Assembly: GCA_046754205.1 (NCBI GenBank)
Contig: JBHHVK010000001.1
Span: forward strand, 1-34,233
Length of the DNA stretch: 34,233 nt
Reading direction: 5' to 3'
Source: Thermodesulfobacteriota bacterium
Lineage (GTDB): Bacteria > Desulfobacterota > GWC2-55-46 > JBHHVK01
The translations under genes were made by a program, and so were the position numbers. Within the stretch, counting starts at the first letter, position 1; every line of letters begins with the position of its first letter. This document shows, piece after piece, positions 11,277-33,799 of this stretch. The notes beneath the pieces are model-generated. The model was not told the DNA's origin, searched no databases, and saw nothing but the letters and a program-made list of their open reading frames with translations.

Positions 11277-11409
11277 AAATGCAATATGCTGCGTTCTCGG
11301 TCGGTTTGACAATATCAATAGGGCCTTTGGAGGGTGGATGGGGATTTTAGCGCGGGGGACGCCACCGGCGCGCCGGCATGCGGCGGAGGGGCTCATGGGG
11401 GAGGGGGCT

Positions 11410-12141
11410 TCAGACGCCTTTGCCGTCGAGGAACCCGGAGAGCTTGGCCCTGTCCTTGTCCTCCATGCAGACTATCCTCAGGGCCATCCCGGGGTACTTG
11501 TCCCCCCAGGACTCGTTGTCGGCCACCCAGGCGACCTTGCCGAGGAACTTTATGACGGGCTTTATCAGTCCGTTGGGCAGCTGGAGCTGCACATCGAGGA
11601 CGGCGCCCCGGGGATGGACGGCCTCGGAGCTGAGGAAGACGCCGCAGCGGCTCAGGCTCGTCACCATGCCGTCGGATGTCTTGAAGACTTCCGCCTGGCG
11701 GCCCTTCCTGAATTGCTTGAAGCGCGCCTTGAGGCCCACCTCGACCCTCTCGAAGAGCCTCCTGCTCGTCTCGCTGCCCCTCTGTCCCTCCTTCTCGACC
11801 TCCAGGCGGAGCTGCTTTTTGGCGGCCGCCTCGTCGGTGTGGATGTCAAAGGCGGGGAGGACCTTGTGGACCTGAAAGACGTCGAGCACCTCCGGGCCCA
11901 CGTCGGTGAGCTTTACCACCCAGCCGTTTCTCCTTATCTTCCTGACGGCGTTTACGAGGATGGCGATGCCGCTCCCGTTTATCGAGCGCAGGCCCTTGAA
12001 GTTCCAGACGAGATTCTCGCTCGTGTGGTCGCACCCGCACCCGAGGGCCTTCTCTATGGAGCCGTGGGCGTTGAGGTCGAAGTCTCCCTCGAAGTCGAGC
12101 ACGGTCATGTTCTCTTCCTGTCTTGCGCTTATGCTGAGCAT
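11410..12141 (-). CDS. STAS domain (anti-sigma antagonist / MlaB-like fold) fused to a C-terminal PilZ (c-di-GMP receptor) domain
   Basis: STAS part: MTVLDFEGDFDLNAHGSIEKAL..LVWNFKGLRSINGSGIAILVNAVRKIRRNGWVVKLTDVGPEVLDVFQV. PilZ part: RRLFER (RRxxxR), then 27 residues later TSLSRCG (D/NxSxxG with a non-canonical first residue), and a PilZ-like C-terminus. I prefer start 12141 because GGGAG lies 10 nt upstream. The track's upstream extension, including the ATG at 12210, has AT-rich codons atypical of this window. Confidence 0.75.
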   Translation of the reverse strand: MLSISARQEENMTVLDFEGDFDLNAHGSIEKALGCGCDHTSENLVWNFKGLRSINGSGIAILVNAVRKIRRNGWVVKLTDVGPEVLDVFQVHKVLPAFDIHTDEAAAKKQLRLEVEKEGQRGSETSRRLFERVEVGLKARFKQFRKGRQAEVFKTSDGMVTSLSRCGVFLSSEAVHPRGAVLDVQLQLPNGLIKPVIKFLGKVAWVADNESWGDKYPGMALRIVCMEDKDRAKLSGFLDGKGV

Positions 12142-12419
12142 CGCGGGCGTGCTCCCTGTAGGGGGTTGAGAATGATCTTCTTTTATCTTATCAATATTTC
12201 GGCGCGCCATCAAGACAAGTTGAGTTTTTTGTGTTAGAGTCAGACTGAAATCTTGCGCCACCTTTCGTCCCAGGGCCCTTTGCGCCAGCTGTCCTTCACG
12301 ACACTCAAGTCGCCGACCAACTGGGCCGATAAAAGTATATACGGACTTCACGAGACATGCACCTGGAGCGGCGACCCCGCGGCCGGCCGGCTCAGGGCGT
12401 TTTTCATACGGCGGTTTTC

Positions 12420-18146: not shown

Positions 18147-18899
18147 ATGACCGGGCGATTCCATAGACTTACACTCTTCTTGCTGCCGCTTTTCCTCGTA
18201 GTCCCGGCCGCCGCCGCTTTCGCCTATGAGCAGGCGGGAGAGGGGGGGCACGGTGCGGGCATGCGCGACCCGGCGGTCGGGTTCGAACACCTCTGGCGCG
18301 AGGTGCTGTGGGACATTACCATCATCGGTGTCGGATTCGCATTGGTCGCCGTCTACCTGATGATCAAATACAGGAGAAAGAGCCCCGGCCAGGAAGGCGG
18401 GGGGCCGAGGCTCACGCTGGTCCAGTCCCTTACCTGGGCGCTCATACCAGTCTTCATATTCATGGCGGACGACATATACCTCGCCGCCAAGGGGTGGACC
18501 CTCTGGAACGAATACAGGAGGGTCCCCGACGGGGCCTACGAGGTGGAGCTCAAGAGCGCCATGTGGAGCTGGAACTTCACTCACGAGGGCGGGGTGGAGG
18601 CCACGAACGAGCTCCGTGTCCCGGCGGGCCGCCCGGTGCTCGTGAAGATGACGAGCATGGACACGGTGCACAGTATGTACCTGCCCGACTTCAAGGTCAA
18701 AGAGGACTCCATGCCCGGACGCATAACGTACCTCTGGTTCCTCCCGAAGGAGCCCGGAGAGCACCTGATAACCTGCGCAGAGTACTGCGGCATGCTCCAC
18801 TCGAGCATGATTGGCAAGGTGATAGCCATGCCCGAGGAGGAGTTCTTCAGCTGGCTTCACGAGGAGCAGCGTAAAGTTAAAGGAGGTACTCAGTCATGA
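18147..18899 (+). CDS. ctaC: Cytochrome c oxidase subunit II (CuA; no fused cytochrome c domain)
   Basis: CuA ligands are present: VHSMYLP ... CAEYCGMLHSSM (H..CxExCGxxHxxM). There is no CxxCH motif anywhere in the protein. The stop overlaps the ctaD start (ATGA at 18896-18899). Confidence 0.92.
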   Translation: MTGRFHRLTLFLLPLFLVVPAAAAFAYEQAGEGGHGAGMRDPAVGFEHLWREVLWDITIIGVGFALVAVYLMIKYRRKSPGQEGGGPRLTLVQSLTWALIPVFIFMADDIYLAAKGWTLWNEYRRVPDGAYEVELKSAMWSWNFTHEGGVEATNELRVPAGRPVLVKMTSMDTVHSMYLPDFKVKEDSMPGRITYLWFLPKEPGEHLITCAEYCGMLHSSMIGKVIAMPEEEFFSWLHEEQRKVKGGTQS

Positions 18900-20485
18900 G
18901 CGCACAGGGAGGCTTCGGCAAGACCTTGAAGGAGTGGATATTCTCCACTGACCACAAGAAGATCGGGGTGATGTACCTTATCGGGTCGCTGGCGGCCTTC
19001 GCCATAGCCGGGCTCATAGCGCTCCTCATAAGGATCGAGCTCTCCAAGGTGGGGCCCACGCTGACGGACAACCCCAACACCTACAACGTCTGGCTCTACT
19101 TCCACGGCGCGGCCATGATCCTCGGCTTCCAGATACCGGCGCTCACGGGGTTTTTCGCCAATTACCTCATCCCTCTTCAGATAGGGGCGAAGGACGTGGC
19201 CTTCCCGAGGCTCAACGCCTTCAGTCTCTGGCTCTTCTGGGCGGGGATAATCCTGGCGCTCCTGACCTTCGTCATACCCGATCCCCCGGACATCATGTGG
19301 ACCGGCTACCCCCCTTACTCGATAATGACGCCGGGCAATACGGCCATGTACACCTTCACGGTCCTGATCCTCGGCTTCGCCTCGATAGCGGGAGGCATCA
19401 ACCTCATAGTCACCATAATAAACATGCGCGCCCCGGGCATGACCTGGGGCAAGCTCAACATCTTCGTATGGGCCACCCTCGGGGCGTTCCTCATCCAGCT
19501 CGTCTTCGTCCCGGTGCTCGGCAGCGCCGTCACCATGATCACCTTCGACAAGTACCTGGGGACGAGCTTTTTCAGCCCCGGCAACGGCGGTGACGTGCTC
19601 CTCTATCAGAATCTCTTCTGGTTCTACTCCCACCCGGCGGTCTACGTCATCCTGCTGCCCTTTATCGGGATAATCTTCGAGATAGTCGCCACCTTCGCCA
19701 GAAACAGGATATTCAACTACAGGGTGGCCGTCTACGGCGGCATCTTCGGGGTCGTCGCCATCTCCGGAGAGGTCTGGATCCACCACCTCTACACCTCGGG
19801 CATGCCCAACTGGATAAGGATAGGCATGATGATCTCCACGCTCATGATAAGCGTGCCCGTGGGGCTTCTGGTCATAAGCCTGGTGGGGACGCTGTACAGG
19901 GGGGCCATCGAGTACAAGACGCCCATGCTCTACGCGGTGGGCTTCATTTTTCTCTTCCTCATAGGGGGCCTTACGGGCATACCCCACGCCCTGGCCGCCC
20001 TCGACCTTCAGCTGCAGGACACCCACTTCGTGGTGGCACACTTTCACTACGTCATGGCGGTCGCGGGCACCTTCGGCATCATCGGGGGCGTCTACTACCT
20101 CTTCCCCAAGATGAGCGGCAAGATGTACAACGAGGGGCTCGGAAAGCTCGCCTTCGTCTTCACCTTCATAGGGGCCAACCTGACCTTCTTCACCATGTTC
20201 ATCGTCGGACTGAAGGGCATGCCGAGGAGGTACTTCGACTACTCCCAGATGCCGCAGCTCGAACACCTCCATCAGATAGTCACCCTCGGGGCCTTCATAC
20301 TCGGCTTCGGAGTTCTTCTTACCTTCATAAGCTGGATACACGGGCTGGTGGCGGGCAGGAAGGCCCCGGACAACCCCTGGGGCTCGAGGTCGCTCGAGTG
20401 GACGACGAGCACACCTCCCGGGCCCGGCAACTGGCCCGAGGTGCCGAACTGCGAGGACTTCGATCCCTATGGATACGGCTCCTGA
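18896..20485 (+). CDS. ctaD: Cytochrome c oxidase subunit I, A2-type
   Basis: Canonical blocks are present: STDHKKIGVMYL, helix VI FWFYSHPAVYVILLP (the YSHPxV signature of A2-type enzymes, rather than GHPEV), WIHHLYTSG, and FVVAHFHYVM. Confidence 0.95.
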   Translation: MSAQGGFGKTLKEWIFSTDHKKIGVMYLIGSLAAFAIAGLIALLIRIELSKVGPTLTDNPNTYNVWLYFHGAAMILGFQIPALTGFFANYLIPLQIGAKDVAFPRLNAFSLWLFWAGIILALLTFVIPDPPDIMWTGYPPYSIMTPGNTAMYTFTVLILGFASIAGGINLIVTIINMRAPGMTWGKLNIFVWATLGAFLIQLVFVPVLGSAVTMITFDKYLGTSFFSPGNGGDVLLYQNLFWFYSHPAVYVILLPFIGIIFEIVATFARNRIFNYRVAVYGGIFGVVAISGEVWIHHLYTSGMPNWIRIGMMISTLMISVPVGLLVISLVGTLYRGAIEYKTPMLYAVGFIFLFLIGGLTGIPHALAALDLQLQDTHFVVAHFHYVMAVAGTFGIIGGVYYLFPKMSGKMYNEGLGKLAFVFTFIGANLTFFTMFIVGLKGMPRRYFDYSQMPQLEHLHQIVTLGAFILGFGVLLTFISWIHGLVAGRKAPDNPWGSRSLEWTTSTPPGPGNWPEVPNCEDFDPYGYGS

Positions 20486-21427: not shown

Positions 21428-22320
21428 ATAACGAATACGCCGCACACAGGGCCGAAGCCTTCGGGGGTCCGGTCGCCGACTACCTGATACTCACCAAGCC
21501 CGGCATAGTGGGGCTCGTGCTCGTCTCGACGCTGGCCGGGGTATATCTCGGCGGCAGGGGGATGGTGGAGCTGCCTCTCATGCTCTGGACGCTTGCCGGC
21601 GTGGGGCTCGCCACCGCCGGCTCGGCCATGCTGAACAACTACATCGACAGGGACATAGACAGGCTCATGCCCAGGACGTCGTCGAGGGCGCTCGCCGCCG
21701 GCACCGTACGGCCCGCCCTGGCGCTCGCCTCGGGTGTCGCGCTCGTCGCGCTCTCCGCGGCCCTTCTCGCCCTTGAGGTCAACGTCCTTACGGCGGCCCT
21801 CTCGGCCGCGGCCGTTTTCTTCTACGTCGTCCTCTACGGGATGCTCATGAAGAGGAGGACCTCCTGGGCAAACCAGGTCGGGTGCGTGGCCGGGGCGCTC
21901 CCCCCTGTGCTCGGGTACGCCGCGGCCACGGGCACCGTGCCGCTCGAGGCCGTGGCGCTCTTCGCGCTCGTCACCTTCTGGCAGCAGCCCCACGCCCTGA
22001 GCCTCGCGCTCAAGTACAGGGACGAGTACGCTGCCGCCGGCATACCGGTGGTCCCGGTGGCGCTCGGGGTTTCGAGGACGAAGACGAGGATCGCCCTGTA
22101 CACCGCCCTCTTGCTGCCCCTGTCCATAGTCCCCTATCTCCTGGGCATGACTGGCACGGTCTATCTCCTTGCGGCCCTGCCGCTCGGGGCGTTCTACCTG
22201 GCCCTGGCCGTGAGGTTTCTCGCTTCGAAGCGGAGCACGGACATGTTCCTCTTCTTCTACTCCATCGTCTATCTCACCAGTGTCTTCACGGTCATGGTGG
22301 CGGACATGAGGATCATTTAA
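21424..22320 (+). CDS. ctaB: Protohaem IX farnesyltransferase (haem O synthase)
   Basis: The true start is ATG 21424 (MNNEYAAHRAE..DYLILTKPGIV). UbiA-family motif NNYIDRDIDRLMPRTSSRAL is present. The 5' 720 nt of track ORF 20704..22320 is an out-of-frame read-through of ctaA. Confidence 0.92.
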   Translation: MNNEYAAHRAEAFGGPVADYLILTKPGIVGLVLVSTLAGVYLGGRGMVELPLMLWTLAGVGLATAGSAMLNNYIDRDIDRLMPRTSSRALAAGTVRPALALASGVALVALSAALLALEVNVLTAALSAAAVFFYVVLYGMLMKRRTSWANQVGCVAGALPPVLGYAAATGTVPLEAVALFALVTFWQQPHALSLALKYRDEYAAAGIPVVPVALGVSRTKTRIALYTALLLPLSIVPYLLGMTGTVYLLAALPLGAFYLALAVRFLASKRSTDMFLFFYSIVYLTSVFTVMVADMRII

Positions 22321-22338
22321 AAGAGAGGTATACCGGAG

Positions 22339-22455
22339 ATGTCGAACGCCAAGTCCGATGACTCAAGGAAAAAGCAGAAGAGCGCCCTTGTAATAGGCCT
22401 CCTTGTGCTCTTCAACTTCATCGTCGTCTGGGTGGTGCTCGCCTGGAGGCTCTGA
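22339..22455 (+). CDS. 38-aa single-TM micro-protein (not in the ORF track)
   Basis: Manual translation: MSNAKSDDSRKKQKSALVIGLLVLFNFIVVWVVLAWRL. RBS AAGAGAGG lies about 10 nt upstream. Codon usage is typical of this window. The stop overlaps the next start (TGATG at 22453-22457). The layout (charged N-terminus plus one TM helix) resembles the 34-aa subunit IIa of Thermus ba3 oxidase. Confidence 0.6.
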   Translation: MSNAKSDDSRKKQKSALVIGLLVLFNFIVVWVVLAWRL

Positions 22456-22859
22456 TGGGCCTGGAGTGGGCGCTCGCCACGGCAAGCCAGGCGGCGATAG
22501 CCGCAAGCGGGCTCCTCGTGGCCGCGGGCGTGGTCCTGGTAAGGCTCGGCCACCGGGACCTCCACAGGCGCGCCATGCTCACGGCCTGCGCCTTCGCCGT
22601 GGTCTTCGTCGTCCTCTACGTGGCAGGCTCGACGCTCTTTCCCCCGGAGCGGTACTCGGGCGGCATGAGGCGGCTCTTCTATTCGCTCCTCTGGTCTCAT
22701 ACCCTCTTGTCGCTGGTAAACCTCCCCCTTGCCGTCGTAACGGTCTACCTCGCCTTCAGGGGCAGGTTCGACCGCCACAGGCGGGTGGCGCCCTTTACGG
22801 CCGGGGTCTGGATGTACGTGGCCGCCTCGGGGTGGACGATATTCCTCATGAACGGATGA
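22455..22859 (+). CDS. ctaM: DUF420 / CtaM-like 4-TM membrane protein (oxidase biogenesis-associated)
   Basis: 134 aa with four TM helices. Conserved-His pattern: GHRDLHRRAM, LLWSHTLLSLVNLPL, FDRHRRVAPFTAGVWMYV. This matches my recollection of DUF420. It sits downstream of ctaA-ctaB. Confidence 0.7.
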   Translation: MGLEWALATASQAAIAASGLLVAAGVVLVRLGHRDLHRRAMLTACAFAVVFVVLYVAGSTLFPPERYSGGMRRLFYSLLWSHTLLSLVNLPLAVVTVYLAFRGRFDRHRRVAPFTAGVWMYVAASGWTIFLMNG

Positions 22860-22874
22860 TGCGGGCCTGACGCC

Positions 22875-24284
22875 ATGTTCGATAGATGTGAAAAGAGCAC
22901 GAGGAGACTCCTTCTCGGCTGGCTGGGGCTGGCGGTCTTCTCGCTCCTCTTCGCCGGGCTTTTCGCCATACTCATAGTGCTGGCGAGGACCCCGGGGGTG
23001 GAGGGGCTCCTTGCCGTGGGCCGGGACTACGTCTACGTGGGCCTTGTGGGGCACGTGGTCCTCGCCTTCGTCATCTGGTTTCTCGCCTTCGAGGGTTTCC
23101 TCTGGGTCTATACGACGACGGCCTTTATCGGCCACGCCGAGGCCTCGGCTGGCCTCGGCTTCGCCTCTCTCGCCCTTTCGGCCCTCGGGGTCGGCCTCGT
23201 GGTCGTCTCGGCCGCCGGGGGGCTCGGCGCCCCGGTGCTCGCCAACTACGTCCCCGTGCTCATGACCCCCTGGTTCTACGCGGGGCTCGCGCTCTTCGCC
23301 GCCGGCATAGTCGGGACGATCGCAAACTCCTTTGCTACGGCGTGGAAGGCGCGCCGCGCGGGCGCGGTCCTCCCGGCCCCGGCCTTCGGCATGATGGTGG
23401 CCGGCGTGGCGGTCCTTACGGCCTTCGTCTGCTTCGCCCTGGTCGGCTGGTTCCAGTGGCGGGCCGGGGGGGCAATAGACTTCGAGCGCCTCAACTGGGG
23501 CGGCGGCCACGTCCTCCAGTTCGCCAACACCGTTGCCGTCGTATCGGTGTGGCTCTACCTCTCGGAGAAGGCCTTCGGCCCCGGGGGCGTGCTCGTCGGA
23601 GGCCGGACGGCCAGGGCCCTCTTTCTCGTCTACCTCGCCTTCATAATCCCGGCCCCATTCATATACATCTTCGGCGACCCCTCGGCCCAGTCCCACCTCG
23701 ACGCCTTCACCTGGCTCATGCGCTGGGGCCACGGCCCCTCCACCGGGCTTTTCATCCTCGCCGGGCTTTACGCGATTATCCGCAGAGGAGAGTTCCCCTG
23801 GAAGGACCCGGTCTTCTCCTCGCTCCTCCTCTCCATGATCATCTACGTCGTGGGAGGGTTGATCGCCATGGACATCCGCGGGGTGAACACCAAGATACCG
23901 GCGCATTACCACTCGGTAATAGTTGCCATCACCATAGCCTTCATGGCCGTATTCTACCTCGTCATGCCGCTCGTGGGCAGGAGGGTCTGGAGCGGCCGGA
24001 TGGCCTCGGTTCAGCCGTACCTCTACAGCTTCGGGATAGTGCTCTTCGTCGCCGGCCTTTACGTCGCCGGTTCCTACGGCATGGAAAGGAAGGCGATGGC
24101 CGGGGCGCAGAACCTCGACACCTTCTGGAAGACCTTCGGCATGGCGCTCATGGGCTTCGGGGGGCTGGTGGCCATCTCCGGCGGGGTGACCTTCGTCTGG
24201 AACGCTCTGATGAGCCTCTTTTCGACCTCGGCGAGGCGTAGGCCCTCCGGCGGGCATTTGCCCTTGACCGGGGGCGCCCGTTAA
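22875..24284 (+). CDS. Divergent B-family-like haem-copper oxidase subunit I paralog that apparently lacks the CuB site
   Basis: 469 aa with 12 predicted TM helices. By-eye alignment to Thermus ba3 subunit I (recalled from memory) gives: GLVGH60VVL ~ GLTLH72GVL (haem b ligand). WGGGH212VLQF ~ WWTGH233PIVY (one CuB His kept, the cross-link Tyr replaced by Phe216). PAPFI263Y264IFGDPS ~ PVGFH282H283QFADPG (both helix VII CuB His lost). EFPWKDPVF ~ ALPWDNPAF. IPAH344YH346 ~ VPGH384FH386 (both haem ligands kept). No subunit II gene is adjacent. Confidence 0.7.
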   Translation: MFDRCEKSTRRLLLGWLGLAVFSLLFAGLFAILIVLARTPGVEGLLAVGRDYVYVGLVGHVVLAFVIWFLAFEGFLWVYTTTAFIGHAEASAGLGFASLALSALGVGLVVVSAAGGLGAPVLANYVPVLMTPWFYAGLALFAAGIVGTIANSFATAWKARRAGAVLPAPAFGMMVAGVAVLTAFVCFALVGWFQWRAGGAIDFERLNWGGGHVLQFANTVAVVSVWLYLSEKAFGPGGVLVGGRTARALFLVYLAFIIPAPFIYIFGDPSAQSHLDAFTWLMRWGHGPSTGLFILAGLYAIIRRGEFPWKDPVFSSLLLSMIIYVVGGLIAMDIRGVNTKIPAHYHSVIVAITIAFMAVFYLVMPLVGRRVWSGRMASVQPYLYSFGIVLFVAGLYVAGSYGMERKAMAGAQNLDTFWKTFGMALMGFGGLVAISGGVTFVWNALMSLFSTSARRRPSGGHLPLTGGAR

Positions 24285-24320: not shown

Positions 24321-24394
24321 GCGGGCGTAATTCAATGGTAGAATGGAAGCTTCCCAAGCTTCATACGTGGGTTCGATTCCCATCGCCCGCTCCA
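24321..24394 (+). tRNA. tRNA-Gly (anticodon CCC)
   Basis: Manual cloverleaf: acceptor GCGGGCG/CGCCCGC, D stem ATTC/GAAT, anticodon stem GAAGC/GCTTC with loop TTCCCAA, variable loop ATAC, T arm GTGGG-TTCGATT-CCCAT, discriminator T, and an encoded CCA. Confidence 0.93.
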
Positions 24395-25780: not shown

Positions 25781-26224
25781 ATGAAGATAGAGATAGACGT
25801 CGGTGAGCCGAGGGACTTTGACGCGGGCGGAGGCGCCACGGTCATTTCTGGCACGGTGAGGGAAGACCTCTCGGGCGAGAGGGAAATCGAGGAAGACCCC
25901 AGCGTCTCCTTCACCCTCCAGGCCACGGGCTCGAAGGGCAAGACCGTGGAGCCCCGGACCTACAAGGAGTTCTGGTTCGTGGCCGACACCCCCCCGGTCG
26001 AATGCGGCGGAATAAGGTTCAAGAGTTTACTGATGACGCCGAGGTACAGGTCTAAGAAGTCCCCGGTGGAGCTTCTGGCAAAGGGCCGAGAGGTCGTGGT
26101 CAACGCCATCTGGCGCCGCGACGGCGAGGGCTGGGACGCCCCGTCCGTGGAGGCGGCCCGCGAGGGGACCCTCGACGTCGAAGGGGTGATAATCGCCAAG
26201 GTGACGAAGGCCGAAGTGCAGTGA
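25781..26224 (+). CDS. Hypothetical cytoplasmic protein, no family recognised
   Basis: 147-aa ORF with codon usage typical of this window, its own promoter and an RBS. No signal peptide, TM helix or motif that I recognise. Confidence 0.6.
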   Translation: MKIEIDVGEPRDFDAGGGATVISGTVREDLSGEREIEEDPSVSFTLQATGSKGKTVEPRTYKEFWFVADTPPVECGGIRFKSLLMTPRYRSKKSPVELLAKGREVVVNAIWRRDGEGWDAPSVEAAREGTLDVEGVIIAKVTKAEVQ

Positions 26225-26532
26225 CCTCTTGAAAGTACTCGCCTTTTTGTCCCTGTTGTGAGCAGGGTCACATATCGAGGCTCGACCGTACAGGTAGAAT
26301 CAGCCGTTGTAGTCCACCCGGGGCCATAGCGATGGAATAAGGCGGAGGACGCGCCCGGCGGCTCTAATGGGGCTTTAATGTTCGTTCCCTTATCGTTAGG
26401 GGGTGGTGGTCCGTCCAGGGCCGAGTGCATATGATTAACGGAGTCGTTGTCAGGGACACAGGCGGTCCCGGGGGGAGGGGGCGTGTATTCCTCTTGCCAC
26501 CGGACGTACTGAACAAAGCAAGGAGAGAAGGC

Positions 26533-27747
26533 ATGGCGTCATTCGGAAGGAAGTATCTTTACGGCTTGCTGGCCTGCGCATTGGCGCTTGGCCTGTGGGC
26601 GGGCCTGGGCGGCAACGCCCTCGCCAAGGGGGGGAGCGCTTTCAAGTGGAAGACCACCTTTCAGTCTGAGTTTCTCTATGACAGCAACATCTATAAACTG
26701 TCGGACACCCAGATAAGCAGGCTCGACGCCAACAAGGCCGCGGACAGGACAAGCGGCCGCTTCAACGACATGAAGTCCGCCGATGACTTCATCTTGACCC
26801 CGCGCCTCAAGGTCACTCTTTCTACCCCGGGTCTCGGCGGCAAGGAACTCAAGATCAGCCCCAACGTACTCTATAATCTATATCTGCAGAGCCAGAAGAA
26901 GAGCCACCTCGTCTCCGGGCTCGACCTGCGGCAGACGGTCGGGGCCCACGACACGCTGGGCCTGGACTTCAAGTACGCGCCCAACGTCTTCAAGAAAAAC
27001 TACCTGACAGGCACGACGAACCCGTCCGGGCCGGTCCTGGACAGTGAAAGGATCTACGGGGCGGCCACGTACGACCGTATCGACGTCGAGGCCTCTTACC
27101 GCCACCGGCTGTGGAAAAAACCCGGCGGCAAGGCGGGTTCCACGGGGATCGAAAAGGTATACGGCACGGCCACGGTCGGGCTCCAGAGCAAGGAATACGA
27201 CGCCCCCTTCAGGAACCGCAACGAGGACTCGATCCTCGGAGGCGCCGGCCTCGACCTTGAATTCGGCAAGGGGGCCGTCCTCGCCTTCAGCTACCTCTTC
27301 AAGAGTATCAATACCCCGACCGACCCCGAGATCCTGATCCGCAACGAGACCGACTTCGGTGTAGACCTCAACGCGGATGGAGACGCCCTGGACCTCGACG
27401 TCGCGACCGTGCAGAGGGTGAACCGCTCGCGCTTAGAGCATAAGCTCGGGGTAAAGTTCAAGGGCGATATCAACGATCAATGGGAAGGGTTTTTCAAATA
27501 CGACATCCGTCTGCAGGATTACCAGTCGACGGAGACCTTCGACGTCACGCGCATCGACCGCCAGGACTTCCGCCACAGGTTCGGCCTCGGCTTTAAGGGG
27601 GACTACGGCAGCCACTGGACCCTCGGGTTCGAGGGGCGATACACCATCGAGGACGCCGATAGGGCCGGACTGGCGACCGTAAACCAGGCGGAGCAGAAGT
27701 CATATAACAGGTACGAGCTCGGGGCCACCCTCTCGTACAGGCTCTAG
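26533..27747 (+). CDS. Outer-membrane beta-barrel protein (exopolysaccharide-locus-type barrel)
   Basis: The start is trimmed to ATG 26533 with RBS AGGAGAG. Signal peptide MASFGRKYLYGLLACALALGLWAGLGGNALA. The rest shows an alternating amphipathic strand pattern with aromatic girdle residues (FQSEFLYDSNIY, LGLDFKYAPNVF, WTLGFEGRYTI, YELGATLSYRL). Confidence 0.7.
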   Translation: MASFGRKYLYGLLACALALGLWAGLGGNALAKGGSAFKWKTTFQSEFLYDSNIYKLSDTQISRLDANKAADRTSGRFNDMKSADDFILTPRLKVTLSTPGLGGKELKISPNVLYNLYLQSQKKSHLVSGLDLRQTVGAHDTLGLDFKYAPNVFKKNYLTGTTNPSGPVLDSERIYGAATYDRIDVEASYRHRLWKKPGGKAGSTGIEKVYGTATVGLQSKEYDAPFRNRNEDSILGGAGLDLEFGKGAVLAFSYLFKSINTPTDPEILIRNETDFGVDLNADGDALDLDVATVQRVNRSRLEHKLGVKFKGDINDQWEGFFKYDIRLQDYQSTETFDVTRIDRQDFRHRFGLGFKGDYGSHWTLGFEGRYTIEDADRAGLATVNQAEQKSYNRYELGATLSYRL

Positions 27748-27791
27748 GCGGCCCCGGGGCCGCAGGGACCATAACAGGGAAGGCAGCGGAC

Positions 27792-28961
27792 ATGGAAGAA
27801 GCAAGAAAACGGGTCCTCTTCACCGGATACGCGCCGATTCACTTCGTCTGCTTCCTTCCGGTCTACAGGCTGCTGGCCGCCGACCCCAGGGTCGAACTCT
27901 TCCTCTCCGGCGGGTTCAAGCGGACCGACCATGACGAGGTGACCTTCAGCCTCGAAGGCTTCTATGACCCCTTTCCCGTGGACCAGAGCCGGGTCTTGCC
28001 CATAGAGGAGGTCAGGCGCCAGGACTTCGACGTACTGGTCTCGGCGCACCTGTCGGACACCCTCTTCCCCCGGTCCGTAAATAAGACGGTGCAGATATTC
28101 CACGGCGTCTCCTTCAAAAACCTCTCGGTCAGGGAGAAGGCCCTGCGCTTCGACCTGCTCTGCCTGCCCGGCCGGTATCATTCCGAGCTCTACCGCAGAC
28201 AGGGGCTAGTTCGGGGCGACGGCCCGGTCTGCCTCCTTACCGGGCTGCCCAAGGTGGACGCCCTGGCGACCGGAGACCTGGACCGCGACGCCGTGCTTCG
28301 CGGCGCCGGGGTGGACCCGGGTCTTCCCACCATCCTCTTCGCGCCCACGGGAGACAAGCACAACGCCCTGGACACCATGGGCCCGGAGGTGATACGGGCC
28401 GTGGCGGAACAGGGGTCGTGGAACCTCTTGATAAAACCTCATGACCATCCCAAGCGGGACGTCGACTGGTTCGCCGAGCTTGCGCCGATGGAGAGCGACC
28501 GTGTCCGCCTCGTCAGGGACAGGGACATCATACCTTACCTCTTTGCCGCGGACCTCCTAATGACGGACGCCTCGTCGGTAGCCGTCGAATACACGCTCAT
28601 GGACCGCCCCATCGTCTTCATAGACGTCCCCAAGCTCTTCAAGAAGCTGCGCAAGCGGGCGCCGGCACTTGACCTCGACACCTACGGCCGGAAGATAGGC
28701 GTCGTGGTGAAGAGCCCTGAAGAAGTGGTCGCGGCCGTGTCCTCTGGCCTCGCCCACCCGGAAAGGGAGGGGGATATAAGAAGGGCCATGGCGACCCATG
28801 TCTTTTACGCGCCCGGGGGGGCGACGGAAAGGGTGGCCGGCGTGGTCCTCCATGCGGCCGGCCTCGCCCCGGGGCTGCCCGGGGACGTGGAGGTCCTCCG
28901 GCCCGAGGATGAATCCGGAGGCGCCCCCGATGGTTCCGGCGCCGTCTCCGGCGGCGGCTGA
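27792..28961 (+). CDS. TagF/TagB-family CDP-alcohol phosphotransferase (CDP-glycerol glycerophosphotransferase-like)
   Basis: Family blocks are present: VQIFHGVSFKN (catalytic His region), ILFAPTGD, LLIKPHDHP, and LLMTDASSVAVEYTLMDRPIVFID (compare LITDYSS..D....KP.IFF). The C-terminal tail is Gly/Pro-rich. Confidence 0.8.
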   Translation: MEEARKRVLFTGYAPIHFVCFLPVYRLLAADPRVELFLSGGFKRTDHDEVTFSLEGFYDPFPVDQSRVLPIEEVRRQDFDVLVSAHLSDTLFPRSVNKTVQIFHGVSFKNLSVREKALRFDLLCLPGRYHSELYRRQGLVRGDGPVCLLTGLPKVDALATGDLDRDAVLRGAGVDPGLPTILFAPTGDKHNALDTMGPEVIRAVAEQGSWNLLIKPHDHPKRDVDWFAELAPMESDRVRLVRDRDIIPYLFAADLLMTDASSVAVEYTLMDRPIVFIDVPKLFKKLRKRAPALDLDTYGRKIGVVVKSPEEVVAAVSSGLAHPEREGDIRRAMATHVFYAPGGATERVAGVVLHAAGLAPGLPGDVEVLRPEDESGGAPDGSGAVSGGG

Positions 28962-29023
28962 CAGGGCGCCGCACCGGCCTAGTCAGTCCTCCCCCTGTTG
29001 GAGCAACCCGAAGGCTTGCCTGG

Positions 29024-30763
29024 ATGTGGACCAAAAAGAAAAAGCAGCGGGCGATTGACGCCATCATCACCTATGGGGGTCCGCACAGGCGGCGGCTCGT
29101 GCGGGGCGGACTCGCGACCATAGGCGTGGTGTTTTTCCGTCTGGCGATGCCATGGCCTCTGCGCGGCGTGGTGGAGGTCGTCTTCCCGAGGGGGTCGCAC
29201 AGCGGAAGACTCATGGTGGACTACCTTCCCGGCTGGGGAGACCCGGTGCTGTGGCTGGGCGGCGTCTATCTGCTCCTCGCCCTGGGGCTCGGCGTCTCCG
29301 AGTACATTCAGCGAGTCGACATCATGAGGTTCGCGGCCGGCACGGTCCACGACATGCGCGCGGCCGCGGTGAGGGCGGCGAAGTGGCTGCCCCTTCAGGA
29401 ACGGGCGACCTCGGGCGACCTCATCGCGCGCATCATCGGGGACAGCGCGCGGATCAAGGCCGGCCTTTCCGGCATCATGGTCCACGGCCTGCAGAACGGG
29501 TTGCTCTTTCTCGCCGTCTGTCTGTTGCTGCTCTACATATCCCTTCCTCTCGGGATGGTCTTCCTGGTGGCGGGCGTCATCGCTCTTTATATCGGGCTTA
29601 CGACTTCAACCCCGGTGGCCGAGACCGCGAGCAAGCATAGGAGCAAGGAGGGGGACTACGCGGCCGCGCTTCAGGAGGGGTTGGAGACCGGCGGGCTGGA
29701 CCTTCAGCTCGAGGAGCTCAACTCGTCGAGCGCGCGCAAGGAGGTGAAGACGACACGGCTTATCGCCCGTTCGTCCCTCTTCATCCACGTGGTGCTGGCC
29801 GCCGCGGTCGGGCTGGCCCTGTGGGTGGGGGCCAAGGGGGTGACGGCCGGGATGATAGCGCCGGGAGAGCTCTTCCTCTTCATCGCCTACGCTCTTACGG
29901 TCCACCGCCGCATGGTACAGGTAGGGCGCCAGTCCGCCCGCACGGGAAAGGTCCTGGCCTGCGCTAACCGGATAGGCAGCATCATCAGCAACGCCGCCTC
30001 AGCCGGGGCCCGGCGGCCGACCGCGCCTGACATGGCGCCGCTCGAATCGGGGCTCCGCCTCGAAGAGGTCAAGGTCGCTTCCGACGGGGGCCGCGGCGGC
30101 AGGCCGAGGCTCCGCCGTACGGACCTGAGCGTCCATCCCGAAACGCGGGTAGCCGTGCTCGGGTCCATCGGCTCCGGCAAATCGACGCTTCTCCGCGTCC
30201 TGGCCGGGGTGGAGACCCCGGATAAGGGAAAGGTATTCTGGGACGGGGAAGAGGTGTCGAAAAAGGAGGGGACCCTCGCGTCCAGGGTCGCCTACCTTCG
30301 CCAGTATCCGGTCTTTCCACCGACCCATATCTGGAAGACCATCGGCCTCCGGGAACCGGGCGCGTTGACGGTCGAGCAGGAGGAGACCCTGCGGCGCATC
30401 GAAGCCTGGAAGGTGATTCAGAGCTTTAGCAAGGGGGTGGAGAAGAAGGTGGGCTCGAGCAGCATCTCCAGAAACGAGGCGCGCATCCTGCGCCTGGCCG
30501 GCATCCTTCTGGGAAGCGGGTCGTCGGTGTGGCTGCTGGACAACCCGGTGCAGGGGTTCGCGCGCAAGAGGGCCAAGCGGTGCCTGGGTGAAATCCTCAA
30601 ATGCGCGACGGACCGGACGGTGGTGATAGCCCTTGCCGAGCCGCTCCTTCTCGACCGCTTCGACCGGGTGCTCTTTCTGCGCGGCGGGAAGGTCCGCTTC
30701 GACGGGACCCCGGCCGAGTGGGAAGAGTGGAGACGCGCCCAGCGGCGGAGAGTACAATCCTGA
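29024..30763 (+). CDS. ABC exporter half-transporter (6-TM domain plus NBD) with a degenerate ATPase site
   Basis: The TMD has 6 helices of the exporter type. In the NBD, Walker A GSIGSGKST and Q-loop LRQ are intact. The signature LSGGQ is replaced by ISRNE (nt 30464-30478). Walker B reads VWLLDN, with Asn507 (nt 30542-30544) in place of the catalytic Glu. The H-loop His is replaced within VVIALAEP. Confidence 0.8.
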   Translation: MWTKKKKQRAIDAIITYGGPHRRRLVRGGLATIGVVFFRLAMPWPLRGVVEVVFPRGSHSGRLMVDYLPGWGDPVLWLGGVYLLLALGLGVSEYIQRVDIMRFAAGTVHDMRAAAVRAAKWLPLQERATSGDLIARIIGDSARIKAGLSGIMVHGLQNGLLFLAVCLLLLYISLPLGMVFLVAGVIALYIGLTTSTPVAETASKHRSKEGDYAAALQEGLETGGLDLQLEELNSSSARKEVKTTRLIARSSLFIHVVLAAAVGLALWVGAKGVTAGMIAPGELFLFIAYALTVHRRMVQVGRQSARTGKVLACANRIGSIISNAASAGARRPTAPDMAPLESGLRLEEVKVASDGGRGGRPRLRRTDLSVHPETRVAVLGSIGSGKSTLLRVLAGVETPDKGKVFWDGEEVSKKEGTLASRVAYLRQYPVFPPTHIWKTIGLREPGALTVEQEETLRRIEAWKVIQSFSKGVEKKVGSSSISRNEARILRLAGILLGSGSSVWLLDNPVQGFARKRAKRCLGEILKCATDRTVVIALAEPLLLDRFDRVLFLRGGKVRFDGTPAEWEEWRRAQRRRVQS

Positions 30764-30808
30764 GTGGCGACAGGGCCGGGGCCTTATTGAAATAGGAGGG
30801 GGATTCTG

Positions 30809-32062
30809 ATGCAAGCGGTAATACTCGCGGCGGGTTTCGGGAGCCGGTTGGAGAGGGTGTCGGACGGCATGCCGAAGTGCCTGCTTCAGGTCGGAGGGCG
30901 TCCTCTGATCGAACATCAACTGGAGGCCCTTCACGACGCCGGTATCGGCAGGATACTCGTAGTGGTCGGCCATAAGGCCGATGAGGTGCGCAAGACCCTC
31001 GGAAACCGGGTCGAGTACATCGAGAACACCCGTTACGACAAGACGAACAGCATCTATTCCCTCTGGCTTGCAAGGGACTGGGTCAATGGCCCCATGGTCC
31101 TTCTGAACTGCGACCTCCTCTTCCATCCGGACATACTGGACCGCCTTCTGTCAAAGGGCGGGAATGCGCTGGCCTTCGACTCCACGTCGACCAAGGGCAA
31201 GGAGCAGACGAAGGTGGCCGTAAGGGAAGGCAAGGTCATAGACCTCGGCAAGGACCTCGCTCCCGAGCTGGCTCGCGGTGAAAGCCTGGGACTCTTGAGC
31301 TTCGACGCCGCCGGGGTCCATTCCCTCTTTTCCAGGGCCCACGCCCTGGTCCAGAACGAAGGTGAAAACAGCTGGGTCATCGAGGCGGTCCGGTCGGTAT
31401 GCTCGGACGTCGATATGCGGGCGCTGAACGTGGCCGGGTCGGCATGGGTGGAGATAGATTTTCCGAACGACCTTGAGCGCGCCCGCAAGGAGGTCTGGCC
31501 CGCCATACAGAGCAGCCACTGGAAGAGGACCATATACTGGAGGAAGACGAAGTACGTAGTCATGGCGCTCGTCACGGCGGCCCTTGTCTCCACCGGTCTG
31601 GTTATCGGTTCCTATTCCGGGCCCGAAAAGGTCGCCTGGACCTACGAATCCCCTCCCGGGGCCGAGAGGGCGATACTGAAGGTCTCAAAGGGGCACCAGA
31701 GGTGGTGGATGTCGTCGCGGGAAAAACCCATGAGCGTGGTGATCGACGGCCCTTCGCAGGTGCGTATCGACGTGCGGCTCCTGATGCCGCCGGGCACCGC
31801 CGAGCCGGGAAGGTACGTCGTCGAGGTCGCGCTCGATGGTAAGCCCGTCACCTGGCAGAGCTTCAAGGCCACCCCGGACCTGGACTCCTCCCTCCCGGAC
31901 TGGGTCGTGGGAGACCGGGACCGGGTCAGGCTGGAGATACCCGAGGGCGGCCACTCGGTCGAAGTCGGCCTGCTGGCGGGCACCAGCGACAGGTTCCTGG
32001 CGCGCATAGGCTACCCCGAGCCCGTCTCACCCGATGGAAACCTCGAAGAGAATAACGAGTAG
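30809..32062 (+). CDS. LicC/IPCT-like cytidylyl (nucleotidyl) transferase fused to a TM helix and an extracytoplasmic domain of about 150 aa
   Basis: N-terminus: MQAVILAAGFGSRL..MPKCLLQV.GRPLIEHQLEAL..ILVVVGHK..NSIYSLWLA..WVEIDFPNDLERA, which is very similar in pattern to LicC-type CTP:phospho-alcohol cytidylyltransferases. Residues about 249-269 (YVVMALVTAALVSTGLVIGSY, nt 31553-31615) form a TM helix. The C-terminal domain is unrecognised. RBS AGGAGGGGG is present. Confidence 0.75.
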   Translation: MQAVILAAGFGSRLERVSDGMPKCLLQVGGRPLIEHQLEALHDAGIGRILVVVGHKADEVRKTLGNRVEYIENTRYDKTNSIYSLWLARDWVNGPMVLLNCDLLFHPDILDRLLSKGGNALAFDSTSTKGKEQTKVAVREGKVIDLGKDLAPELARGESLGLLSFDAAGVHSLFSRAHALVQNEGENSWVIEAVRSVCSDVDMRALNVAGSAWVEIDFPNDLERARKEVWPAIQSSHWKRTIYWRKTKYVVMALVTAALVSTGLVIGSYSGPEKVAWTYESPPGAERAILKVSKGHQRWWMSSREKPMSVVIDGPSQVRIDVRLLMPPGTAEPGRYVVEVALDGKPVTWQSFKATPDLDSSLPDWVVGDRDRVRLEIPEGGHSVEVGLLAGTSDRFLARIGYPEPVSPDGNLEENNE

Positions 32063-32113
32063 CGGTCTTTGCCGGAAGGCCGTTTTACCGAATAGACCAT
32101 GCAAGGGGGCGTC

Positions 32114-32533
32114 ATGAAGAGCTACAGGAAGGAGCTTGCCTTCAACATACCCGCGAGGCGGGGGTTCGTGAACATAACCCCCGACGTCGAGGCCGCCCTT
32201 GCCGAAAGCGGCGTCGTCGAGGGCCTCGCGCTCGTAAACTCCATGCACATCACCTCGTCGGTCTTCATAAACGACGATGAGCCGGGCCTGCACGGCGACT
32301 TCGAGGCCTGGCTCGAGGGGCTCGCCCCCCACGAGCCCGTAAGCCGCTACAGGCACAACGACACGGGCGAGGACAACGGCGACGCCCATCTGAAGCGCAC
32401 GGTGATGGGCAGGGAGGTCGTGGTCGCGGTGACGGGCGGACGCCTCGACCTCGGCACCTGGGAGAGGATCTTCTACGGCGAGTTCGACGGCAGACGCAGG
32501 AAGAGGCTCCTCGTAAAGATAATCGGAGAGTGA
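32114..32533 (+). CDS. yjbQ: YjbQ/UPF0047 family protein (secondary thiamine-phosphate synthase-like)
   Basis: Family blocks are present: [59 protein letters not shown] prefer ATG 32114 because AGGGGG lies upstream. Confidence 0.85.
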
Positions 32534-32676
32534 TCGTCCGTGGACTCACGCCTGAATTGTAAAAGACAGCGCTGCATCTATCGGTCAACGTCAGACGATG
32601 TGAGGGGTCCTTCCTGTAACGGACAATTGTAATTCTCGCCTGAATAGTGTATATTTCAGAAGATAATTATGAGTAT

Positions 32677-32700
32677 GGTGGGCTGTGCCCACCAGTTTTT
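32677..32700 (+). terminator. Intrinsic terminator-like hairpin
   Basis: GGTGGGC-tgt-GCCCACC followed by AGTTTTT. It lies in the AT-rich spacer after yjbQ, immediately before the left REP hairpin. Confidence 0.6.
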
Positions 32701-32757: not shown

Positions 32758-33261
32758 ATGCCATCGATAAGGATTCCGAGAGACGCTTCCTCTGGTTACT
32801 ACTTCCTTACCTTCACGGTGCGTAACTGGTACTATGTCCTCGACAGGCACAACCGTTTTGAGATACTCGGCGACGCGCTGAAGTTCTCGATAGAGAAAAA
32901 GTCCCTCAAGCTCTACGCCTATGTCTTCATGCTCAACCACCTGCACCTCGTCGTCTCTTCCCCCGACGTAGTTGGATTCGTCAGGGACTTCAAGAGGCAT
33001 ACGTCTAAGGAGATGCTCAATAACATCACCGCAACAGAGCCGGATGTCCTCAAGCTTTTCGAGGTAGGAGGGGGGAGGCACGAGTTCTGGGCAAGGACGA
33101 ATATGCCGAAGTCCGTAGAGGGCGAGGGGTTTCTATTGCAGAAGGTCGACTACATCCACAAAAACCCTGTGCGCAAGCAGTACGTGATGAGACCGGAGGA
33201 TTGGGTATGGTCGTCGGCGAATTCTGAGAGCGAGGTTCCCGTCGAGCCTTTGCCGGTATGA
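32758..33261 (+). CDS. REP-associated tyrosine transposase (RAYT; IS200/IS605-type Y1 HUH transposase)
   Basis: HUH motif in FMLNHLHLVV and catalytic Tyr motif in VDYIHKNPV. The 167-aa size is typical of the family. The gene is flanked on both sides by near-identical palindromes. Confidence 0.88.
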   Translation: MPSIRIPRDASSGYYFLTFTVRNWYYVLDRHNRFEILGDALKFSIEKKSLKLYAYVFMLNHLHLVVSSPDVVGFVRDFKRHTSKEMLNNITATEPDVLKLFEVGGGRHEFWARTNMPKSVEGEGFLLQKVDYIHKNPVRKQYVMRPEDWVWSSANSESEVPVEPLPV

Positions 33262-33404: not shown

Positions 33405-33461
33405 TTGACAGAGCACAAAGGTTGTGATAAAAATCCTTTACTTGGTTGGTAAAGGATTTTA
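33405..33461 (+). promoter_or_regulatory. higBA promoter with an overlapping palindromic operator
   Basis: -35 TTGACA (33405-33410), 17-nt spacer, -10 TAAAAA (33428-33433). A perfect 12-bp inverted repeat AAAATCCTTTAC-N7-GTAAAGGATTTT (33430-33460) overlaps the -10 box and the RBS. Confidence 0.6.
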
Positions 33462-33463
33462 TA

Positions 33464-33799
33464 ATGGATATAGAATTCAAAACAAACCGCCTGGCAAAGA
33501 TCTTCAACTCAGAGGACCAGCTCTATAAGGCATACGGCAAGAAGACAGGGGCAATTATAATGCGTCGCCTCATCCTCTTGTTGGCTGCTGGTACTTTAGA
33601 GGATGTCCCACATACCCCACCAACACGAAGACATCAGCTGTCAGGGGCTAGAAAAGGAGAGTATGCAATTGATGTGGGTAAGAAGGATAGACTGATCTTC
33701 AAACCAGCCCACAACCCGTTACCGCTGAAAGAGGACGGTGGGTTAGACTTAAAGAGGGTTACGAAGATTATAATCTTAGGTGTGGAGGACTATCACTAA
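33464..33799 (+). CDS. higB: HigB-type toxin (RelE/ParE superfamily, 'killer protein' family)
   Basis: The protein ends in ..IIILGVEDYH, the characteristic C-terminus of HigB-family toxins (compare Proteus HigB ..NYEDYH). Core LSGARKGEYAIDVGKKDRLIF aligns with LKGDR.G.WSI.V..NWRI.F. I prefer ATG 33464 because AAAGGA lies 7 nt upstream. The toxin-first gene order is typical of higBA. Confidence 0.8.
   Translation: MDIEFKTNRLAKIFNSEDQLYKAYGKKTGAIIMRRLILLLAAGTLEDVPHTPPTRRHQLSGARKGEYAIDVGKKDRLIFKPAHNPLPLKEDGGLDLKRVTKIIILGVEDYH

Follow-up and report, generated by a model that had tools for sequence, protein, structure and literature searches.

A conserved four-gene locus of diderm bacteria that probably forms an envelope module built on CDP-alcohol chemistry

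The DNA considered here is contig JBHHVK010000001.1 of a Thermodesulfobacteriota metagenome-assembled genome (MAG; assembly GCA_046754205.1), taken at its full length of 34,233 bp and called the window below, and the subject is a set of four genes on its forward strand, G1 to G4, which follow one another from position 26533 to position 32062 with gaps of 44, 62 and 45 nt. An earlier note on this DNA had described them as four co-directional genes of one locus, coding for an outer-membrane beta-barrel, a TagF-family cytidine diphosphate (CDP)-alcohol phosphotransferase, an ATP-binding cassette (ABC) exporter of degenerate type, and a LicC-like cytidylyltransferase carrying a periplasmic domain. 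The four open reading frames (ORFs) have exactly these limits in the ORF list, the deposited proteins of the contig are 100% identical to the window ORFs, and the GC content at third codon positions (GC3) is high in all four, as in real genes of a contig with 63% GC. The family assignments were upheld by profile searches and structure models: a barrel model for G1, PF04464 for G2, PF00664 together with PF00005 for G3, and PF12804 within the LicC/PntC/IPCT clade for G4. The features of the locus are as follows.

26533..27747, + strand: G1, outer-membrane beta-barrel protein of 404 amino acids (aa) with about 14 strands (AlphaFold2 model, Foldseek, signal peptide)
27346..27393, + strand: acidic loop of G1, E-x5-D-x-N-x-D-x-D-x2-D, residues 272-287 (10 homologues)
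27792..28961, + strand: G2, CDP-alcohol phosphotransferase of the TagF/TagB fold, 389 aa (PF04464)
29024..30763, + strand: G3, ABC half-transporter of exporter type, an ABC_membrane transmembrane domain plus a nucleotide-binding domain, 579 aa (PF00664, PF00005)
30161..30187, + strand: Walker A of G3, GSIGSGKST, intact (sequence alignment)
30461..30481, + strand: degenerate signature of G3, S-I-S-R-N-E-A in place of L-S-G-G-Q/E-R (alignment)
30527..30547, + strand: degenerate Walker B of G3, V-W-L-L-D-N-P, catalytic Glu changed to Asn (alignment)
30623..30643, + strand: H-loop region of G3, V-I-A-L-A-E-P, without His (alignment)
30809..32062, + strand: G4, nucleotidyltransferase with transmembrane helix and beta-sandwich, 417 aa
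30809..31462, + strand: N-domain of G4, residues 1-218, nucleotidyltransferase of the LicC/PntC/IPCT clade, predicted to be cytoplasmic (PF12804)
31556..31612, + strand: transmembrane helix of G4, residues 250-268, after the K/R-rich stretch HWKRTIYWRKTKY (hydropathy, AlphaFold2 model)
31637..32017, + strand: C-domain of G4, residues 277-403, beta-sandwich, predicted to be periplasmic (AlphaFold2; predicted local distance difference test score, pLDDT, about 90-95)

Do these four genes belong together? A search through one genome for each species turned up 198 relatives, from which 80 loci were kept, and the four proteins were mapped onto 83 loci. The order G1-G2-G3-G4 is retained in 36 loci of at least five phyla, among flanking genes that are unrelated, and therefore the arrangement is not a matter of chance; it occurs in Thermodesulfobacteriota, Planctomycetota (including Ca. 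Uabimicrobium), Myxococcota, Gemmatimonadota, Bacteroidota and unclassified MAGs. The barrel-bearing module was found in diderm phyla only, and its carriers are mostly MAGs of sediment, soil and marine origin, not hyperthermophiles. G1 stands directly upstream of G2 in 36 or more loci, and in 75 of the 83 the gene after G2 codes for an exporter of the ABC_membrane type. Among the loci open to scoring, the barrel occurs in step with the long form of G4: both are present in 36 and both absent from 20; in five a long G4 is present and no barrel was detected, and a barrel beside a short G4 is seen in none (Fisher p 8.5e-12, uncorrected for phylogeny). When all ORFs of the 83 loci were clustered, five families recurred widely; four of them are G1 to G4, and the fifth, which matches none of these, we take to consist of overlapping ORFs that are spurious. 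After these in frequency come families present in no more than 11 loci, which are lineage-specific housekeeping functions (Rieske, FTR, GCS2, UDP-glucose dehydrogenase, two-component system). We regard it as highly likely that G1 to G4 function together as one envelope module whose chemistry is that of CDP-alcohols.

The earlier note had also stressed which standard genes are missing, and this stands for the most part. TagD, TagO/TagA, TagGH and the group 2 capsule genes (KpsM/KpsT, KpsE/KpsD, KpsS/KpsC) are absent among the families recurring in the 83 loci, in which no further family accompanies the module. A Pfam scan of every plausible gene of the 34-kb window found no Kps component (the group 2 capsule genes included), Wza/Wzc, TagD, TagO/TagA, TagGH or LicD, and no glycosyltransferase gene beside the locus; the one correction is that a PMT_2/GT-C-type protein is encoded 22 kb off. 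As the contig covers 34 kb only, capsule genes, primer enzymes, a partner ABC protein or a kinase or synthase for the alcohol-phosphate may be encoded in other parts of the genome.

The N-domain of G4 matches PF12804 at 67.9 bits (E 1.6e-18). Its best NCBIfam score is to the IPCT domain NF041135 (E 3.8e-29, 101.9 bits, below the cut-off of 580), a match limited to the IPCT half, at profile positions 1-217. The nearest solved relatives are the aminoethylphosphonate (AEP) cytidylyltransferase PntC (6pd1/6pd2), IPCT (4jd0, 2xme, 4mnd) and LicC (1jyk), with PDB profile matches of 2.4e-27 for PntC 6pd1, 4.9e-23 for LicC 1jyk and 1e-16 for IPCT 4mnd/2xme; Foldseek, run on the full G4 model and dominated by the N-domain in its matches, placed PntC at E 2e-21 with a root-mean-square deviation of 2.2 Å, the matches of this clade ranging from 2.2 to 3.1 Å. 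The domain has the nucleotide-binding motif G-x-G-S-R-L and the pair E132-x-T-K ... G147-K-D-L, the latter common to IPCT. Thus, the signals for its substrate are mixed, the fold being best matched by PntC and the E-x-T-K/G-K-D-L motif by IPCT, and Asn100 of G4 is aligned with the amine-binding Glu104 of PntC (PMC6697681).

What follows the N-domain is less familiar. In the AlphaFold2 model of G4 (pLDDT 87.6) a long helix of residues 219-266 joins the two domains, and the transmembrane helix, with its K/R-rich stretch before and a confidently modelled beta-sandwich after it, agrees with the periplasmic domain that the earlier note had placed on the cytidylyltransferase; by the positive-inside rule, the topology would be N-in/C-out. 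We know of no LicC or PntC that has a transmembrane helix and a periplasmic domain. The C-domain carries the motifs Q-x-W-W, G-P-x3-R-x3-R, P-G-R-Y-V-V-E-V, V-G-D-R-D-R and P-x-G-x-H. A profile search of the PDB with this domain had no match at E<=10, and among Pfam matches at E<=1 for 20 sequences there was no OstA, LptC or HlyD, only scattered sub-threshold similarity to F5/8 type C, PPC and MalQ_N; it appears to belong to an undescribed family. A search of 1.84 billion representatives gathered 171 clusters of relatives, and a similar domain is also found in proteins of about 300 aa that have a signal peptide and two tandem copies. These signal peptides support an extracytoplasmic location of the C-domain. 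The tandem proteins form an unannotated beta-sandwich family of their own (P0264, P0286, P0290 and about 100 similar clusters) with the motifs G-P-x-x-[IL]-R ... Y ... D-G ... P-x-G-x-H, and other related architectures are 683 aa long, or 751 aa with NTP_transf_3 plus HEAT repeats.

G2 matches PF04464 (Glyphos_transf) over residues 90-353 with 60 bits against a cut-off of 22.1 (E 2.7e-16), and the same family is present in all its listed homologues, so the TagF-family status given to it from the bare sequence survived profiling. A profile of 14 homologues, compared with solved structures, found TagF 3l7i at E 2e-9, TarL 8va1, and more weakly Cps3D 8qoy at E 3e-4. The two motifs are H104-G-V-S-F-K-N and K-P-H217-D-H219-P-K; H217, in the invariant K-P-H-D-H-P-K, aligns with H584 of TagF, and the surroundings of the invariant H104, which lies before the start of the printed alignment, resemble the family motif H-G-x-P-L-K, so that H104 may be the counterpart of TagF H444. 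The hydropathy profile of G2 shows no transmembrane segment. In size, G2 is like the single-addition enzymes TagB and TarF. It is to be noted that G2, its N-terminal half included, is 60-77% identical across phyla (more than 120 homologue clusters). Since the whole enzyme is so conserved, its acceptor must be a molecule common to many phyla.

G3 unites PF00664 (47.5 bits) and PF00005 (62.9 bits) in one chain, and its best NCBIfam similarities, to CydC/CydD, LssB and MsbA, are all below cut-off. The suspicion that this ABC protein is degenerate is fully borne out: the signature contains S-R-N-E-A, Walker B reads L-L-D-N-P, and the H-loop has no His. This is not a peculiarity of one contig. Throughout the clade of the window, comprising Thermodesulfobacteriota, Planctomycetota and Myxococcota, the signature is S-R-N-E-A-like, Walker B is L-D-[N/S/D]-P and the H-loop lacks His, with Walker A intact. 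A sister clade of Gemmatimonadota and Bacteroidota, in which the gene order is the same, has the signature L-F-S-G-G-E-R, the Walker B motif L-L-D-E-P and the H-loop V-T-H-D. The ATPase degeneracy is thus real, conserved and derived, and because the sister clade keeps all three motifs, the ancestral role of G3 would have been active export. As the module has a single G3 gene with a degenerate nucleotide-binding domain, a homodimer would have two degenerate sites; to our knowledge, degenerate ATP sites described so far are one of the two sites in heterodimeric ABC exporters.

G1 matches no family of Pfam or NCBIfam. It begins with a signal peptide (residues 1-31, a hydrophobic N-terminal segment with cleavage after A-L-A) and ends in S-Y-R-L, which is like a beta-signal. 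Its AlphaFold2 model, from an alignment of 10 sequences, is a beta-barrel with a predicted template modelling score of 0.70, whose strands we read as 14, since long loops follow the odd strands. Foldseek matched this model to OmpG, CymA and FadL at E 1e-7 with a TM-score of about 0.5, all generic monomeric barrels; Wza, AlgE, PgaA and BcsC are not among the best 50 matches listed, and G1, as a monomeric barrel, is not like TolC. After strand 9 comes a long loop, predicted to be extracellular and low in pLDDT, in which E272, D278, N280, D282, D284 and D287 are invariant or nearly so in 10 homologues; it resembles a DxDxDG loop that binds Ca2+, and may bind this ion likewise.

Loci without the barrel have a different composition. 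They are found in cyanobacteria, Craurococcus, Entotheonella, Actinomycetota and some Planctomycetota, and their nucleotidyltransferase is short and cytosolic; the distant ones often lack the ABC protein too. An APH-family kinase, seen in no loci but these distant barrel-less ones, is present in 11 of them, including the cyanobacterial and Craurococcus ones. We considered this kinase as a clue to the substrate and found it uninformative, its best relatives being viomycin kinase (E 0.003) and LxmK (4e-11). Chlorogloeopsis fritschii PCC 6912 provides an example (L068, 3792-8159), where the short nucleotidyltransferase, the kinase and two TagF-like genes adjoin genes for a GDPD phosphodiesterase and an MFS transporter, and L043, L045, L066 and L075 similarly combine a short nucleotidyltransferase, the kinase and a TagF-like gene.

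Which known system does the module resemble most? With the wall teichoic acid pathway of Firmicutes it would share the activation of an alcohol-phosphate by cytidine triphosphate (CTP), a PF04464 phosphotransferase of the GT-B fold at the cytoplasmic face of the membrane and ABC export, and the nearest solved relatives of G2, TagF (3l7i) and TarL (8va1), come from that pathway. However, the cytidylyltransferase is of the PF12804 LicC/PntC/IPCT clade instead of the TagD type (PF01467), TagO/TagA primer enzymes and an LCP ligase are lacking, G3 is an ABC_membrane half-transporter and not a two-component TagG/TagH, G2 falls below all Tag/Tar equivalog models, and the module is that of a diderm and includes a barrel of its own for the outer membrane. 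Closer in cell type are Cps3D, Cps7D and Bcs3 of group 2 capsules, TagF-fold enzymes of diderms which make a phosphodiester polymer from CDP-glycerol or CDP-ribitol; those are large multi-domain proteins, act on the KpsS/KpsC poly-Kdo (3-deoxy-D-manno-oct-2-ulosonic acid) glycolipid and depend on a transition transferase, KpsMT and KpsED (PMC11666461), none of which is found in the window or recurs in the 83 loci. The Lic and Pnt systems have nucleotidyltransferases of the clade and fold of the G4 N-domain, and the APH-family kinase of the distant loci recalls LicA, but the Lic transferase is LicD and not TagF-fold, LicD, LicA and LicB are absent from the window, and no gene for Ppm, Ppd or AEP transaminase accompanies the module as in Pnt. 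FtaB (CD0242) and FtaD (CD0244) of the Clostridioides difficile flagellin Type A system likewise pair a nucleotidyltransferase with a phosphotransferase that is TagF-like and works with a small molecule activated by CDP (PMC10714395; bioRxiv 10.64898/2026.02.12.704994); Fta, however, decorates a cytoplasmic glycoprotein with one unit, needs FtaA, FtaC and a glycosyltransferase, and works without an ABC protein, a periplasmic domain or a barrel. IPCT/DIPPS of (hyper)thermophiles (4mnd, 2xme) is likewise a cytidylyltransferase fused to a membrane part, yet this part is a CDP-alcohol phosphatidyltransferase, while G4 has one transmembrane helix and a beta-sandwich and leaves the transfer to a separate TagF-fold enzyme. 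G3 is like MsbA, PglK, CydDC and NdvA/ChvA in domain architecture and best family similarities, and type I secretion differs in that the C-domain of G4 has no HlyD-type match and the monomeric G1 is no TolC-like channel. Finally, CpgD and CpgA of Caulobacter build, by a CTP-dependent nucleotidyltransferase, the anionic phosphodiester head group of ceramide diphosphoglycerate, an outer-membrane lipid (PMC12275187, PMC9393093); CpgA is an integral membrane transferase of the PgsA type, the genes lie in a sphingolipid cluster and no dedicated ABC protein or barrel belongs to them. We had tried this CPG2 system as an analogy and dropped it, CpgA being PgsA-type and not TagF-like. The export parts of the module, a degenerate ABC_membrane half-transporter, a periplasmic domain borne by the presumed donor-synthesizing enzyme and a small barrel of the module's own, do differ from those of described systems, as the earlier note had it.

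From the family memberships, the motif states, the predicted topology and the co-occurrence we infer every catalytic and transport step of the following route. Held at the inner membrane, the N-domain of G4 would condense CTP with a small phospho-alcohol or phosphonate to a CDP-alcohol, as its homologues do. G2, a peripheral membrane enzyme, may then move the alcohol-phosphate to a hydroxyl of a membrane-bound acceptor conserved across phyla, with release of cytidine monophosphate. Such CTP activation followed by TagF-type transfer, which had been proposed from the start, appears to be the natural reading of the families. For G2, both outcomes have precedents: chains are made by TagF/TarL and the capsule polymerases, a single unit is added by FtaB/FtaD. 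We lean towards repeated transfer, by which a short anionic phosphodiester chain would grow on a common lipid anchor and the product would be teichoic-acid-like. A dimer of G3, of an exporter family, would carry it across the inner membrane; as G3 of the window clade no longer has the catalytic Glu, the His of the H-loop or the glycines of the signature, translocation would probably depend on ATP binding, on very slow turnover or on an unlinked partner. The beta-sandwich of G4, which co-occurs with the barrel, may receive the product and guide it to G1, and this barrel with its acidic loop might let it reach the outer membrane or the cell surface.

How far can this be trusted? We give a probability of about 0.4 to the reading that G2 extends a common lipid anchor by a short anionic chain of phosphodiesters and that this chain is exported to the outer membrane or surface, and a number of points weigh against it. 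The known exporters of teichoic acid and capsule polymers are of the Wzm/Wzt type (TagGH, KpsMT) and not of the ABC_membrane type, and the ATPase of the window clade looks catalytically dead, which would be odd for an exporter. A periplasmic domain of 130 aa cannot bridge the periplasm alone. The module has no kinase or alcohol-phosphate synthase, and so the donor precursor must come from elsewhere. The G1 model was built on 10 sequences (pLDDT 73.6) and its Foldseek matches are generic (TM-score no more than 0.5), and the co-occurrence statistics carry no correction for phylogeny. Against the TarF, TarL, TarB and TagF equivalogs of NCBIfam, G2 reaches only E 0.004-0.08, far below cut-off (for TarF, TarL and TarB, E 0.006-0.08 and 12-16 bits, with cut-offs of 500-1000), and as judged from sequence, to call the product a polymer and teichoic-acid-like seems to go beyond the evidence. 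The earlier note had done both, and we cannot follow it, given these scores below the Tag/Tar equivalogs and the single unit transferred by FtaB/FtaD; nor do we take the activated group to be a polyol, because the N-domain of G4 is closest to enzymes for aminoethylphosphonate, inositol-1-phosphate and phosphocholine, not to TagD, and the unit of FtaB/FtaD is no polyol either. A bolder version, in which diderms of several poorly studied phyla own a minimal envelope-spanning 'teichoic acid' route made of a tethered cytidylyltransferase, a TagF-fold polymerase, an MsbA-type ABC protein that works without ATP hydrolysis, and a beta-sandwich leading to a 14-strand barrel, we hold to be unlikely; if true, it would be a fourth export pathway for surface polymers beside the Wzx/Wzy-, ABC (Wzm/Wzt)- and synthase-dependent ones.

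Might G2 instead add a single phospho-X head group to a conserved lipid or glycolipid of the envelope, so that the module serves lipid decoration and trafficking and makes no polymer? X could be phosphocholine, phosphoethanolamine, aminoethylphosphonate, phosphoinositol, a phospho-amino acid or a phospho-acid, and the acceptor a lipid A/core precursor, a ceramide or a diacylglycerol-type lipid, which G3 would flip and which the C-domain of G4 and G1 would help to insert into the outer membrane. We think this only a little less probable than the chain. It suits a G3 of the MsbA/CydC/PglK class, whose members handle lipids and lipid-linked groups, an N-domain of G4 closest to PntC, LicC and IPCT, which all feed single-unit transfers, the size of G2 noted above, and a small module without a priming enzyme; moreover, FtaB/FtaD adds just one N-methyl-phosphothreonine, as reconstituted in vitro (PMC10714395; bioRxiv 10.64898/2026.02.12.704994), and CpgD of Caulobacter supplies CDP-glycerate for the head group of a sphingolipid (PMC12275187). 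However, genes of lipid synthesis (Spt, Lpx, etc.) accompany the module in none of the 83 loci, the known transferases of lipid head groups are of the CDP-alcohol phosphatidyltransferase/PgsA type (CpgA; PMC9393093) or the LicD/EptA type and not TagF-fold, and a barrel in the size class of OmpG and CymA, channels for solutes and oligosaccharides, suits a hydrophilic chain at least equally.

Two further explanations deserve less weight. G2 might join CDP-X to a soluble alcohol-phosphate, the resulting small phosphodiester (a solute like di-inositol-phosphate or diglycerol-phosphate, a signalling or a chelating compound) being released by G3 and G1 to the periplasm or medium. Small solutes are a typical cargo of ABC_membrane-type exporters and 14-strand channels, and the best NCBIfam score of the G4 N-domain, like the motif E-x-T-K...G-K-D-L, points to IPCT of the di-myo-inositol-phosphate pathway. 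Yet the partner domain DIPPS, a CDP-alcohol phosphatidyltransferase, is absent, TagF-fold enzymes are known for membrane-bound or macromolecular acceptors, the carriers are mostly MAGs from sediment, soil and sea and not hyperthermophiles, and a membrane-tethered synthetase with a periplasmic domain would be hard to explain for a solute, which makes such a compound quite improbable. Still less can be said for mere neighbours without an export route, where the alcohol would be taken up through G1, or G1 would be an unrelated porin, G3 would serve as a scaffold or regulator that transports nothing, and the target would stay in the cytoplasm or inner membrane. The loss of catalytic ATPase residues from G3 in the clade of the window, the likeness of G1 to the uptake channels CymA, OmpG and FadL, and the distant cyanobacterial and other loci without barrel and often without ABC protein, whose kinase suggests scavenging of an alcohol, are in keeping with it. 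But the barrel is never seen with a short G4, the transmembrane domain of G3 is of exporter type and the sister clade with the same gene order is catalytically canonical, and the order of the four genes is kept across phyla; we consider it very doubtful.

The DNA around the locus has the following features.

26225..26532, + strand: upstream non-coding region with the ribosome-binding site AAGGAGAG (sequence scan)
32099-32533: UPF0047/YjbQ gene, directly 3' of G4, outside the conserved module
32676..32694, + strand: strong intrinsic-terminator-like hairpin, the first downstream of the locus, after the UPF0047/YjbQ gene (hairpin scan)

The ribosome-binding site and the deposited protein of 404 aa back the ATG at 26533 as the start of G1; a scan of the upstream region for sigma-70 promoters gave no convincing match. 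The UPF0047/YjbQ gene may be co-transcribed with G1 to G4 here, but was rejected as a member of the module, being its neighbour in this window only and not in other loci. Rejected as well was the ORF at 25781-26224 (+) just upstream, which codes for 147 aa and is codon-biased, with no Pfam or PADLOC match and no homologue in 83 related loci. An anti-phage role was set aside, PADLOC having given trivial P-loop matches for G3 only, and very long antisense ORFs, such as that of 646 aa at 22317-24257 (-), have low GC3, overlap real genes and are not genes themselves but artefacts that the high GC content produces.

The rest of the window encodes proline and 1-pyrroline-5-carboxylate (P5C) dehydrogenases, aminotransferases, rubrerythrin, an Mla operon, a cytochrome oxidase cluster, tRNA-Gly (24321-24394, the only RNA element in an Rfam scan of the window), and a transposase and toxin island. 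The PMT_2 protein mentioned above is a fusion of 788 aa at 2186-4552 (-) between a PAP2 phosphatase and a PMT_2/ArnT-like GT-C glycosyltransferase; it resembles an enzyme modifying lipid A or a glycolipid, and is unlinked to the module in other genomes. Two overlapping, codon-biased ORFs without Pfam match, 8686-10083 (-) and 10080-11396 (-), of 465 and 438 aa, adjoin the gene for a STAS-domain protein at 11410-12351 (-), which is divergent from the Mla operon. The cytochrome oxidase/CtaA/CtaB cluster contains a canonical CoxI (18896-20485; PF00115, E 5.6e-135) and ends, after a DUF420 gene (22455-22859), in a divergent second COX1-like membrane protein (22875-24284 (+); PF00115, E 8e-18). Right after the terminator at 32676-32694 the GC content falls from about 63% to 46%, and the end of the contig (32600-34233), where a transposase-like gene of the IS200/Y1 type (32758-33261) and one for a HigB-like toxin (33446-33799) lie, is probably a mobile or toxin-antitoxin island of small size.

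Here, we have described a compact and widely conserved set of four genes that is also unstudied, as a full-text literature search found no paper on this set or its export side; its probable task is to activate a small alcohol that bears a phosphate, to join it to a molecule bound to the membrane and to bring the product in the direction of the outer membrane, by a route that differs from those described for teichoic acids and capsules. If the product is a surface phosphodiester polymer or an anionic lipid of the outer membrane, this would be a new envelope component and a new export route for diderms, in phyla (Thermodesulfobacteriota, Planctomycetota, Myxococcota, Gemmatimonadota and MAGs of Bacteroidota) whose envelope chemistry is almost unexplored. 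The two clades that share the gene order, one with a canonical and the other with a fully degenerate ATPase, offer a natural experiment on an ABC exporter without hydrolysis. With only four genes and no recurrent accessory genes, the module is suited to heterologous reconstitution. And the fusion of the enzyme that would synthesize the donor to a periplasmic domain that co-varies with the barrel suggests a way by which cells may couple the synthesis of an envelope component to its export.

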